Part shown: positions 12,001 through 18,000 of the stretch, piece after piece
Numbering within the stretch: position 1 is the first letter of the stretch
How the letters are laid out: each line of letters begins with the position of its first letter
Assembly: GCF_045037415.1 (NCBI RefSeq)
Contig: NZ_CP173438.1
Direction: 5' to 3' (one strand)
From: Escherichia coli
Lineage (GTDB): Bacteria > Pseudomonadota > Gammaproteobacteria > Enterobacterales > Enterobacteriaceae
Length of the DNA: 64,000 nt
Program-made: the position numbers

Positions 12001-15000
12001 GCCGGAAGAGCAGCTGTGGTCGACGGAGAAATACCTCGATTTCATGCCGAAATTGTTTGACGCGGTACGTAACAAGTTTGGATTTAATGAACATTTGCTG
12101 CATGACATGCACCATCGCTTAACGCCTATTGAAGCGGCGCGCTTTGGTAAAAGCATTGAAGATTATCGCATGTTCTGGATGGAAGACCCGACGCCTGCGG
12201 AAAACCAGGAATGCTTCCGTCTCATTCGCCAACATACCGTCACACCCATCGCGGTGGGTGAAGTCTTCAACAGCATCTGGGACTGCAAACAACTGATTGA
12301 AGAGCAACTCATCGATTATATCCGCACCACGCTGACTCATGCAGGCGGAATTACCGGTATGCGTCGGATTGCCGATTTTGCTTCGCTGTATCAGGTACGT
12401 ACTGGCTCACACGGTCCTTCCGATTTGTCACCAGTCTGCATGGCTGCGGCGCTGCACTTTGATCTGTGGGTCCCCAATTTCGGTGTCCAGGAATACATGG
12501 GTTATTCCGAACAAATGCTCGAAGTCTTCCCGCACAACTGGACTTTCGATAACGGCTATATGCATCCGGGAGAAAAACCGGGTCTTGGCATCGAATTCGA
12601 TGAAAAGCTGGCGGCGAAATATCCCTATGAACCTGCTTATCTGCCAGTCGCACGTCTGGAAGATGGCACGCTGTGGAACTGGTAAGGAGTAAGGTAATGA
12701 AAAGCATTTTAATTGAAAAACCGAATCAACTGTCGATTATCGAACGTGAAATACCCACCCCGTCAGCGGGTGAAGTACGAGTAAAAGTGAAACTTGCCGG
12801 AATTTGTGGTTCAGATAGCCATATTTACCGTGGGCATAATCCTTTTGCGAAATATCCGCGCGTCATTGGTCATGAATTCTTTGGCGTCATTGATGCAGTG
12901 GGTGAAGGCGTGGAAAGCGCCAGAGTCGGTGAACGCGTTGCTGTCGATCCGGTGGTCAGCTGTGGGCATTGCTATCCGTGCTCTATAGGTAAGCCGAACG
13001 TTTGTACGACACTTGCTGTATTAGGTGTGCACGCTGACGGTGGTTTCAGTGAATATGCCGTGGTTCCGGCAAAAAATGCGTGGAAAATTCCTGAAGCAGT
13101 GGCCGATCAATATGCGGTGATGATCGAACCTTTTACCATTGCGGCTAACGTTACCGGTCATGGTCAACCGACTGAAAATGATACCGTTCTGGTTTACGGT
13201 GCCGGTCCAATCGGCCTGACGATCGTTCAGGTATTAAAAGGCGTCTATAACGTTAAAAATGTGATTGTTGCCGATCGCATTGATGAACGACTGGAAAAAG
13301 CGAAAGAGAGCGGGGCAGACTGGGCGATTAATAACAGCCAGACACCACTTGGCGAGATTTTCGATGAAAAAGGCATCCAACCGACATTAGTTATCGATGC
13401 CGCTTGTCATCCTTCAATCTTGAAAGAGGCCGTAACGCTGGCTTCTCCAGCGGCACGTATTGTATTGATGGGCTTCTCCAGTGAACCGTCTGAAGTGATT
13501 CAGCAAGGAATTACCGGAAAAGAACTCTCTATTTTCTCTTCACGCTTAAATGCAAATAAATTCCCGGTCGTTATCGACTGGTTAAGTAAAGGGTTAATTA
13601 AACCAGAAAAACTAATTACCCATACGTTTGATTTCCAGCATGTTGCGGATGCCATTAGTTTATTTGAACAGGATCAAAAACATTGCTGCAAAGTCTTACT
13701 CACTTTTTCTGAATAATACCAATAACGGCGAATAAGTAGTACGCATCTTACCTCTTTTTTAGAGATAACCATTATGACAATAGAAAAACACGAAAGAAGC
13801 ACTAAGGATTTGGTGAAAGCAGCAGTATCGGGATGGCTGGGCACTGCGCTTGAATTTATGGATTTCCAGTTATATTCGCTCGGCGCAGCGTTAGTGTTTC
13901 ATGAAATATTTTTTCCTGAATCATCAACGGCAATGGCGTTAATTCTGGCAATGGGAACCTATGGTGCAGGTTATGTGGCACGTATTGTCGGAGCATTTAT
14001 TTTCGGCAAAATGGGCGACAGAATAGGGCGTAAAAAAGTGCTCTTTATTACCATCACCATGATGGGGATCTGTACCACCTTAATTGGTGTGTTACCGACT
14101 TATGCACAAATTGGTGTTTTTGCCCCCATCTTGCTGGTGACGCTGCGTATTATTCAGGGGTTGGGTGCAGGTGCGGAAATTTCCGGTGCCGGTACGATGC
14201 TGGCGGAATATGCGCCAAAAGGTAAGCGCGGAATTATCTCCTCATTTGTGGCTATGGGAACTAACTGCGGAACCTTGAGCGCAACGGCAATCTGGGCCTT
14301 TATGTTCTTCATTCTCAGTAAAGAGGAACTGCTGGCGTGGGGATGGCGTATACCTTTCCTGGCGAGCGTTGTCGTGATGGTCTTTGCTATCTGGTTGCGT
14401 ATGAATCTGAAAGAAAGCCCGGTCTTTGAGAAGGTTAACGACAGCAACCAACCGACAGCAAAACCTGCACCTGCTGGTAGCATGTTCCAGAGCAAATCCT
14501 TCTGGCTGGCAACAGGGCTGCGTTTTGGTCAGGCTGGTAACTCAGGTTTAATTCAGACTTTCCTTGCAGGCTATTTAGTGCAGACGTTATTGTTTAACAA
14601 AGCAATTCCAACAGATGCATTGATGATCAGTTCGATTCTCGGCTTTATGACCATTCCGTTCCTTGGTTGGTTATCCGATAAAATTGGTCGCCGGATCCCG
14701 TATATTATTATGAATACCTCTGCGATTGTGCTGGCATGGCCAATGCTTTCTATCATCGTAGATAAAAGCTATGCCCCGAGCACCATTATGGTTGCACTGA
14801 TTGTGATTCATAACTGTGCGGTGCTTGGATTATTTGCTCTGGAAAACATTACCATGGCAGAAATGTTCGGCTGTAAAAACCGCTTTACCCGAATGGCTAT
14901 TTCTAAAGAAATTGGTGGTCTTATCGCTTCCGGTTTTGGTCCTATCCTGGCGGGGATTTTCTGCACCATGACGGAATCCTGGTATCCGATCGCCATTATG

Positions 15001-18000
15001 ATCATGGCATATTCTGTGATTGGTTTAATCTCTGCGCTGAAAATGCCAGAAGTGAAAGACCGTGATTTAAGTGCGCTGCAAGACGCCGCAGAAGATCAAC
15101 CACATGTTGTAAGAGCTGCGCAACCGTCCAGAAGTCTGTAAATCCTCAATCCCTTCTCTTACCGGAGAGGGGATTTTTATTCATATAAAAAAACATGTAG
15201 CTTGCTATATTTAATTTTAAGGAATTGTTATGGGAAATCATTTGTTATCAGCAAAAGCGACGCTCCCTGTTTATGATCGTAATAACCTGGCCCCAAGAAT
15301 TGTTCATTTAGGCTTTGGTGCATTTCACCGTGCGCATCAGGGCGTGTATGCCGATATTCTTGCTACGGAACATTTCAGTGACTGGGGATATTATGAGGTC
15401 AACTTAATCGGCGGCGAACAGCAAATTGCCGATTTACAACAGCAAGATAATCTTTATACCGTTGCGGAAATGTCGGCTGATGCGTGGACGGCTCGCGTCG
15501 TTGGCGTCGTTAAAAAAGCCTTACACGTACAAATAGACGGCTTAGAAACCGTGTTGGCTGCGATGTGTGAACCGCAAATCGCGATTGTCTCTCTGACAAT
15601 CACCGAAAAAGGGTATTTCCACTCTCCGGCGACCGGACAGTTAATGCTCGATCACCCGATGGTCGTTGCCGACGTGCAAAATCCCCACCAGCCGAAAACT
15701 GCAACAGGGGTGATTGTTGAGGCGCTGGCTCGCCGTAAAGCGGCAGGACTTCCCGCATTTACCGTCATGTCATGTGACAACATGCCAGAAAACGGTCATG
15801 TTATGCGTGACGTTGTCACTTCCTATGCGCAAGCCATTGATGTAAAACTGGCACAATGGATCGAAGATAACGTGACTTTCCCATCAACAATGGTGGACCG
15901 TATTGTGCCCGCAGTGACAGAGGATACGCTGGCGAAAATCGAACAACTTACCGGTGTGCGCGATCCGGCAGGCGTTGCCTGTGAACCTTTCCGCCAGTGG
16001 GTAATAGAAGATAACTTTGTTGCCGGACGTCCGGAATGGGAAAAAGCGGGAGTCGAACTGGTTAGTGATGTGCTGCCTTATGAAGAGATGAAGTTGCGCA
16101 TGCTCAATGGCAGTCATTCATTCCTGGCGTATCTGGGCTATCTTGCCGGATATCAGCACATTAATGACTGCATGGAGGATGAACATTATCGTCATGCGGC
16201 GTATACCTTAATGTTGCAGGAACAAGCGCCGACGCTGAAAGTGCAGGGCGTTGATTTGCAAGATTACGCTAACCGATTAATTGAACGCTATAGCAACCCG
16301 GCGTTACGTCATCGAACCTGGCAGATTGCGATGGATGGCAGCCAGAAATTGCCACAGCGGATGTTGGATTCTGTTCGCTGGCATCTGGCGCATGACAGCA
16401 AGTTCGATCTGCTGGCGCTGGGCGTCGCGGGTTGGATGCGTTATGTCGGTGGTGTTGATGAACAGGGAAATCCGATAGAAATCAGTGACCCACTGTTACC
16501 TGTTATTCAGAAGGCAGTACAAAGTAGTGCTGAAGGGACAGCGCGCGTGCAGTCATTGTTGGCGATTAAGGCGATATTTGGTGATGATTTGCCAGATAAT
16601 AGCTTGTTTACGACTAAAGTGACGGAAGCGTACTTGTCTTTATTAGCGCATGGCGCGAAAGCGACAGTGGCGAAATATTCCGTGAAGTAAAAAAAGCAAT
16701 GCCGCCATCGGCGGCATTCACACGCTTAGTTCATGCCGAGACGAATCAGGTCCAGTGGTGCCAGTTTCTCTTCACAACCTTCAACAACTACGGTTTTTCC
16801 GCGGCGGATTTGCTCAGCGGTCAGACCTTCAGTATCAATCGACAGGATCTTGCCAGTGTGACCGGTGCCGCTAACCATAACACGGCTGCCAGTGGTGATT
16901 GCGTTACGGTTACGATCGTAGGTCGTCATAGGTGTTTTCTCCTTTCTGATTTACAGTCGAAGCCCACGTAACGGGCGCAATATAAATACTCCTGTCGAGT
17001 GAAATATTTTTTGTTTTTGATCAAGCTCACATCTTTTTTGATGCATGCATGAGCCATAAGTCGGGGGGAAAGACTCTCACCCCGGATGGGATGAGAGGAA
17101 ATGAATTACTCTTCGCTAAACCAGTCGCTGTTTTCCTGGCGGATCTGGCGCACGGATTCGCTGATTTCCTGCAAATGTTGCGTCATTGCACGTTCTACCG
17201 CATCGCCATCACGTTTTTGCAGGGCAGAGAAAATATCAAGATGCTGGCGTAACAGCATTTCTGGTGGAGAAACGTGGTCGAAGCTCATATAGCGCACGCG
17301 ATCAACGGTCGCTTTCAGGTTCTCAATGGTATCCCACGCCAGTTGACAGTCGGCAATCTGCGTCAGGAGTTGATGGAAGTTGTCATCAAGTTCAAAAAAA
17401 TCATCCAGTTGCTTGCGCTCAATGGCAATGCGTTGCTGGTGAAGATTTTGTTCCAGTTGGTAGCACTGGCTTTCGGTAATCATGCTCGCCGCCCGACGCG
17501 CCACCGCGCACTCAATGGCCTGACGGATAAAACTGCCGTTGCGCACCTGGGCCATGGAAATTTTGTTGACGTAGCTGCCACGCTGCGGACGAATTTGAAT
17601 CAGACCGTTTTCCGCCAGTTTAATAAAGGCTTCACGAACCGGCTGGCGTGACACATTGAAACGAACAGAAACTTCTTTTTCCGACAACGGTGTGCCTGGT
17701 GCAATCAGGCAATGGACAATGTCGCGGCGAAGAATACGATAAATCTGCTGATTGACAGGCTGTGTGGGATTAAGTTGCGTTTCGACGGTCATTCGTTCTT
17801 GCTTGTGAGTGAGTTAACTGCATGAGTCTACCACTTTTTTGTGACAAGCAATAACCCGGCAGTTACGCCGGGTATAAAAATTACTGACGGTGGACATTCA
17901 GTCCGGCATAGCTTTGGGTAACCGGCATCATTTCCAGTGTATTGATATTGACGTGAGCAGGCAGCGTTGACACCCACCAGACGGCTTCGCTGACATCTTC

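Follow-up and report, generated by a model that had tools for sequence, protein, structure and literature searches.

An intact, phage-free rspA-rspB-ydfJ-ydfI locus with an unoccupied putative Qin-type attB core in the chromosome of an Escherichia coli ST131 strain

As shown in Table 1, rspA, rspB, ydfJ and ydfI follow one another in this order, with a divergent GntR regulator nearby, in the 64-kb stretch of DNA that was analysed (the whole of which is called the window). The product of rspA scored 743 bits with the NCBIfam ManD (D-mannonate dehydratase) equivalog, whose cut-off is 550. The products of rspB and ydfI matched NF007489 and NF011611 with 692 and 649 bits, against cut-offs of 376 and 603, respectively. 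An identical sequence from strain IPCEC48 is annotated as rspA, rspB, ydfJ (MHS family MFS transporter YdfJ) and ydfI. A preliminary description of this DNA had placed a whole ydfJ directly after rspB, and this was borne out by an ATG-initiated ORF of 455 aa and a spacer of exactly 57 bp. It had given the feature as 13717-15141; the end stood and the start did not, as the intergenic spacer opens at 13717 and the gene itself begins at 13774.

Table 1. Coordinates of the features of the rspA-rspB-ydfJ-ydfI locus in the window.
Feature	Position	Strand	Basis and remarks
rspA, first gene of the cluster	11438..12685	+	ORF list; RefSeq start at 11471
rspB, Zn-dependent oxidoreductase	12673..13716	+	ORF from GTG at 12673; RefSeq start at 12697; stop codon ends at 13716
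rspB-ydfJ intergenic spacer	13717..13773	+	57 bp; sequence and site scan
Full-length ydfJ, predicted 455-aa MHS-family MFS transporter	13774..15141	+	ORF list, profiles, alignment with K-12
Putative attB core TTATGGATTTC, unoccupied	13856..13866		exact 11-bp direct repeat flanking Qin in K-12
Terminator-like hairpin, 12 pairs and T-run	15148..15175	+	scan; 7 bp past the ydfJ stop codon
ydfI, mannitol-dehydrogenase family, fructuronate reductase subfamily	15230..16690	+	ORF list, profile NF011611
rspR (ydfH), GntR/FCD-family regulator of the cluster	17106..17792	-	ORF list, Pfam, annotation

YdfJ passed the cut-off of the curated NCBIfam profile TIGR00883 (metabolite/H+ symporter) with 462.9 bits against 443.45 (E=9.5e-139), and the match covered residues 23-418 of the protein and positions 1-400 of the 400 in the profile. 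It also matched Pfam MFS_1 (E=8.3e-37) and Sugar_tr, and a chance ORF was ruled out by these profile results. Frameshifts and stop codons were looked for throughout the ydfJ ORF and none was found. The identical sequence is named 'MHS family MFS transporter YdfJ' by RefSeq in thousands of E. coli genomes. Judged by the profile matches, the ydfJ product is a complete proton symporter of the MHS family, predicted to transport a metabolite, and its probable substrate is suggested by the neighbouring genes.

A consensus scan of the 57-bp spacer detected neither a promoter-like nor a terminator-like site, and a terminator-like hairpin follows ydfJ. Because of this combination, ydfJ is most likely co-transcribed with rspAB, as far as a consensus scan can indicate. 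The gene order and the gene families of the window (ManD, Zn-dehydrogenase, MHS transporter, fructuronate reductase and GntR regulator) were the same in the rspAB-ydfJ-ydfI-type clusters of 78 of the 80 species of Enterobacterales sampled. Going by what Wichelecki and colleagues reportedly found in 2014, the substrate is probably a hexonate, e.g. L-gulonate, processed via RspB, then YdfI and then RspA (ManD), and the cluster probably belongs to an L-gulonate pathway.

In E. coli K-12 MG1655 (NC_000913.3), the 'cryptic prophage Qin' is annotated at 1632277..1652745 (20,469 bp), between ydfJ (b1543, 427 aa) on one side and ynfP (b4534) and rspB on the other. Unlike K-12, the window holds no part of this 20,469-bp element, and only 57 bp separate its unbroken ydfJ from rspB. 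K-12 YdfJ corresponded to residues 29-455 of the protein encoded in the window, with 425/427 residues identical and its annotated start at Met29, while the 36 residues of K-12 YnfP consisted of residues 1-31 of YdfJ followed by five phage-encoded residues, KSHAC. K-12 ynfP and K-12 ydfJ together rebuild the 455-aa protein of the window. The N-terminus of the window protein was complete and includes a conserved motif of the first helix (…GTALEFMDFQLY…), which the K-12 remnant lacks.

The K-12 sequences flanking Qin were colinear with the window at 97.6-98.0% identity and were mapped by blastn to 20144..13851 and 13866..8612. In the window they therefore adjoin each other, overlapping by 16 bp and sharing an exact repeat of 11 bp, and the window contains the exact unoccupied junction. 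A blastn search with the whole Qin element found no Qin-like DNA between rspB and ydfJ or elsewhere in the 64-kb window. The preliminary description had stated that K-12 ydfJ is broken by Qin and separated from rspB by about 20 kb, in agreement with the MG1655 annotation of 20,469 bp, and the matches of K-12 ynfP and ydfJ to the window protein confirmed that the prophage entered ydfJ and not another gene. Alignment with the K-12 ydfJ fragments, which it had suggested as the way to find the attB core, yielded the 11-bp sequence TTATGGATTTC. In published work, ydfJ is listed as the place of Qin insertion in strains W, K-12, B and Crooks (PMC3032704), and integration of Qin at the 5' end of ydfJ is described as costing the gene its promoter and 28 codons (PMC6379469). 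The empty ydfJ site of the window is real, correctly read and ordinary, its insertion site having already been published (PMC6379469).

The core was present at both ends of Qin in K-12, at the same locus (ydfJ'/ynfP), and once in the window. A chance match of the 11-mer was rejected, as 0.03 occurrences were expected in the window and the single copy lies exactly at the common breakpoint of the split genomes. It overlaps codons 28-31 of ydfJ, including the ATG of Met29, and encodes part of the peptide LEFMDFQ. Of the 80 loci examined, 77 had this peptide at the aligned position, and in 2 further loci it appeared shifted by a short N-terminal indel; a prophage-truncated locus carried REFMDFQ in its place. 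Half-site matches in other genomes overlapped over 13851-13869, and the junction sequences were identical in K-12, O157:H7, O166:H15 and CE10. In these junction sequences the ATG of Met29 lay inside the duplicated core, and no replacement N-terminus for ydfJ was evident at the phage end. At the occupied site of O166:H15, an intact tyrosine integrase and an excisionase immediately adjoin the rspB side. Use of the same attB by a phage was also observed beyond E. coli, in Silvania hatchlandensis.

From its position at these junctions, the core is identified as the unoccupied attB of Qin-type lambdoid prophages, at which an integrase is expected to act. As proposed here, the tyrosine integrase of Qin-type lambdoid phages would use TTATGGATTTC as attB, and integration, as in K-12, would duplicate the core, leaving one copy at either end of the prophage. 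Codons 1-31 of ydfJ would remain beside rspB, where they are annotated as ynfP in K-12, and the rest of the gene, from Met29 within the core, would be moved about 20 kb or more and cut from its promoter. Since this event is absent from the window, the transporter gene is whole, and so is the putative operon. The same logic applies to Rac in ttcA, another lambdoid attB in the 5' end of a gene, where a short core within a conserved coding segment is the target of a tyrosine integrase and becomes duplicated, with a change to the host N-terminus (PMC6379469). Unlike at other sites of this kind, the phage end in ydfJ restores no equivalent N-terminus, and 28 codons and the promoter are lost (PMC6379469).

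A 401-bp probe across the core was compared with 5426 complete E. coli genomes. The probe was uninterrupted in 2007 of them (37%) and not continuous in about 62%, most of which were split at the core, at probe positions 191-209. The empty state is not unusual in E. coli. Over 25 kb the window showed 100% identity to ST131 strains JJ1886 and JJ1887, and over a further 39 kb its identity to JJ1886 (NC_022648.1) was 99.987%. Several closed ST131 chromosomes matched it base for base along 25-30 kb. The unoccupied junction of JJ1886 and IPCEC48 did not differ from that of the window (100% over 25-30 kb). None of the 40 best matching genomes listed for the initial 25 kb, JJ1886, JJ1887 and O25b:H4-ST131 among them, had a prophage at the site; 33 matched in one piece and 7 were split only by a small insertion. 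These identities assign the window to the chromosome of an E. coli ST131 strain (phylogroup B2).

The phage-free state had been described from the outset as ancestral and the site as terminus-proximal, and both statements held. At the level of the locus, 78 of 80 other species of Enterobacterales had a full-length ydfJ with rspB upstream at a distance of 38-172 bp, so the uninterrupted arrangement is ancestral. The site is terminus-proximal because an exact dif site was found at 39278-39305 of the window, 25.4 kb away. We are confident, with a probability of roughly 93%, that the window contains the intact, phage-free rspA-rspB-ydfJ-ydfI locus of an ST131 chromosome, with a Qin-type attB core within ydfJ and in the ancestral arrangement.

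The empty site could also have been restored rather than never occupied, if an ancestor of ST131 carried a Qin-type prophage in ydfJ that was lost by precise Int/Xis excision. Exposure to such phages is high, given the proportion of complete E. coli genomes in which the site is interrupted, and precise excision is feasible because the integrase and excisionase are still intact in some occupants. However, all 40 of the best matches listed, ST131 strains among them, lacked a prophage at the site, and the arrangement equals that of the 78 other species. Precise excision regenerates an identical attB without a scar, so the sequence can hold no positive evidence for such a loss, which we consider unlikely. 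Less likely still is that the ORF is intact and yet non-functional, being silent or decaying in this lineage, in which case 'intact' would have no phenotypic meaning. K-12 and most E. coli manage without a complete ydfJ, and the transporter function is a prediction. However, YdfJ showed identities of 77-98% in 80 species, where the matches were full-length and the synteny was conserved, its score exceeded the cut-off of the curated MHS family, and its reading frame was free of frameshifts and stop codons. A collapsed or dropped prophage that falsely joined rspB to ydfJ can practically be dismissed: prophages are repeat-rich and can break assemblies in general, but no result here points to an artefact, the same uninterrupted junction was present in 2007 independently assembled complete genomes, and the window was base-for-base identical to closed ST131 chromosomes. 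An ancestral locus that is intact and free of phage remains the preferred reading.

Beyond good annotation the importance of this finding is small, and it lies in the placement of the attB core and in current figures for occupancy and synteny. The 427-aa 'YdfJ' and the 36-aa 'YnfP' of K-12 are confirmed as the two parts of a single transporter of 455 aa, and ydfJ of ST131 is the complete reference form of the gene. For the physiology of the rspAB-ydfJ-ydfI cluster, an empty-site strain is preferable to K-12. We further suggest, very tentatively and as something that is probably not the case, that Qin-type prophages, by separating rspAB from ydfJ-ydfI, prevent a sugar acid, possibly L-gulonate, from being taken up and catabolised, and that the attB in LEFMDFQ is a hot spot across genera that carries a metabolic cost. 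If this were true, lineages with an empty site, such as ST131 and phylogroup B2, would keep a metabolic capacity that is absent from prophage-bearing lineages, and across the Enterobacteriaceae the attB in the LEFMDFQ segment would be a conserved hot spot of integration whose metabolic cost recurs.

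The unoccupied site in ydfJ is real, and the preliminary description, in which ydfJ was whole and directly followed rspB, was supported in every checkable detail. The Qin integration site in ydfJ is already known and is textbook-level for E. coli K-12. As listed in the table, position 13717, originally given as the start, is the first intergenic base and not the start of the gene. The presence of a full-length 455-aa MFS transporter 57 bp past rspB was confirmed by the six-frame ORF list and by the family profile. YdfJ scored 462.9 bits against NCBIfam TIGR00883 (metabolite/H+ symporter), above the curated cut-off of 443.45 bits, and residues 23-418 spanned the entire profile. 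Pfam MFS_1 and Sugar_tr also matched the translation, and the identical RefSeq sequence is named 'MHS family MFS transporter YdfJ'.

Features of the ydfJ locus and of other sites in the window
Feature	Position	Strand	Detail
rspB	stop at 13716	+	six-frame ORF list
rspB-ydfJ spacer	13717..13773	+	57 bp
ydfJ	13774..15141	+	ATG start, 455-aa ORF, six-frame ORF list
attB (window)	core 13856-13866		...GCGCTTGAATTTATGGATTTCCAGTTAT...
rspB-side junction			...GAATTTATGGATTTC/AAGAGTCAT...
ydfJ-side junction			...CCTGTGAATTATGGATTTC/CAGTTAT...
Hairpin after ydfJ	15148-15175		12 pairs + T-run
dif match	39278-39305		exact, 28 bp, GGTGCGCATAATGTATATTATGTTAAAT; adjoins hipBA
ynfF pseudogene	~4487-6056	-	1570 bp
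dcp-dgcZ interval	~20854-21062		81-bp and 90-bp remnants
M16 metallopeptidase gene	~53670-54587		beside gadB
Diguanylate cyclase remnant	~59868-60031		164 bp, upstream of dosP

In K-12 MG1655 (NC_000913.3), the annotated feature 'cryptic prophage Qin' occupies 1632277..1652745 (20,469 bp), with ydfJ (b1543, 427 aa) on one side and ynfP (b4534, 36 aa) followed by rspB on the other. This annotation bears out the K-12 state given in the preliminary description, with Qin splitting ydfJ and lying between it and rspB over about 20 kb. Residues 29-455 of the window YdfJ aligned with K-12 YdfJ at 425/427 identical positions. K-12 YnfP reads MTIEKHERSTKDLVKAAVSGWLGTALEFMDF then KSHAC: the first part corresponds to YdfJ residues 1-31, and the last five residues are encoded by the phage. 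When the K-12 locus was compared with the window by megablast, the ydfJ-side and rspB-side flanks matched 20144..13851 and 13866..8612, respectively, and overlapped at 13851-13866; Qin itself had no match anywhere in the 64 kb. Alignment to the two K-12 flanks located the attB core as the exact direct repeat TTATGGATTTC, an 11-mer present at both ends of Qin and once in the window (0.03 expected by chance). The core spans ydfJ codons 28-31 and includes the ATG of Met29, which accounts for the annotation of a 427-aa ORF in the K-12 remnant.

The same junctions were found in other E. coli. The ydfJ-side sequence was identical in O157:H7 and CE10, adjoining tail-fibre, Lom and DUF1076 genes and ydfK, ynfT and tail-fibre genes, respectively. 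The rspB-side sequence was identical in O166:H15 JNE21-009, where an intact tyrosine recombinase and excisionase directly adjoin it and an exonuclease gene, ydfD and dicB come next; the occupant is therefore a Qin-type lambdoid prophage. The anatomy suggests that integration would occur by ordinary integrase-mediated recombination at the core. A lambda-like prophage 'between ydfJ and rspB' was described in SE11 (PMC2608844).

Among sequenced E. coli, the empty site is shared by more than one third. A 401-bp probe with the core at its centre was continuous in 2007 of 5426 complete genomes (37%), and a 4-kb probe in 2012. In most other genomes the short probe was split into 1-206/209 and 191-401, that is, at the same core. 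In a published survey of 638 strains, 48% had an occupied Qin locus.

YdfJ was also scanned in one genome per species, giving 80 loci from Citrobacter, Enterobacter, Leclercia, Klebsiella, Raoultella, Kluyvera, Buttiauxella, Cedecea, Serratia, Pragia, Gilliamella and others. Full-length ydfJ with the rspB end 38-172 bp upstream was found in 78 of them, most with rspA upstream and with ydfI directly after ydfJ (a few kb off in some). One exception (L062) is a contig end. In the other, from Silvania hatchlandensis (NZ_JAMGZK010000053.1, L082:1-4030), the truncation of ydfJ falls at Met29 (…GTGAATTTATGGACTTTCAG…), as in K-12, and the 4 kb upstream carry tail fibre (phrog_1980), DinI (phrog_189) and UmuD-like (phrog_3469) genes, so the same attB has also served a prophage outside the genus Escherichia. 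The peptide LEFMDFQ under the core was invariant at the aligned position in 77/80 loci, and the exact 11-mer was present in roughly half. The uninterrupted arrangement, described as ancestral and phage-free, is therefore ancestral for the locus; in the history of this particular lineage, a former integration may have been followed by precise excision.

Over its first 25 kb the window matched ST131 chromosomes at 100% identity, among them JJ1886, JJ1887, O25b:H4-ST131 and MNCRE44; window 24733-64000 was 99.987% identical to JJ1886, and 1-30690 was 100% identical to IPCEC48. The genes annotated across the whole window, from mlc to sra, are ordinary chromosomal genes, with no phage genes among them. 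The dif query was the 28-bp E. coli sequence; its match places the replication terminus and the chromosome dimer resolution site within the window. The 25.4 kb between attB and dif agrees with the site having been called terminus-proximal.

A few otherwise identical ST131 genomes, NZ_CP123332.1 (AREA_494) and strains 1435-1438, carry IS1 or IS150 in the region, giving a two-piece match independent of the phage attB. The annotation of the identical IPCEC48 sequence gives ynfF, the paralogue of ynfE, as a frameshifted pseudogene of a molybdopterin oxidoreductase, next to a ynfE of 2427 bp. Between dcp and dgcZ, only fragments of a hypothetical protein and of TIGR00156/YdeI are annotated, whereas ydeJ and ydeI are complete in O157:H7, which indicates that the window lineage has lost about 1 kb here by deletion. 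In the near-identical JJ1886, the diguanylate cyclase gene is a frameshifted remnant and the M16 metallopeptidase gene is N-terminally truncated and abuts ydeM, which suggests lineage-specific deletions.

RspA, YdfI and RspB passed the models of the ManD (D-mannonate dehydratase) equivalog, the fructuronate reductase subfamily and Zn-dependent oxidoreductases, respectively, and RspR matched GntR/FCD regulators. A consensus scan found no terminator-like or promoter-like site in the rspB-ydfJ gap. The three genes rspA, rspB and ydfJ are predicted to form one transcription unit devoted to a sugar acid, with ydfJ encoding its transporter. The substrate, in work by Wichelecki et al. in 2014, is reportedly L-gulonate. 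Prophage insertion would then cut the transporter and ydfI off from the promoter, and YdfJ would lose part of its first transmembrane helix.
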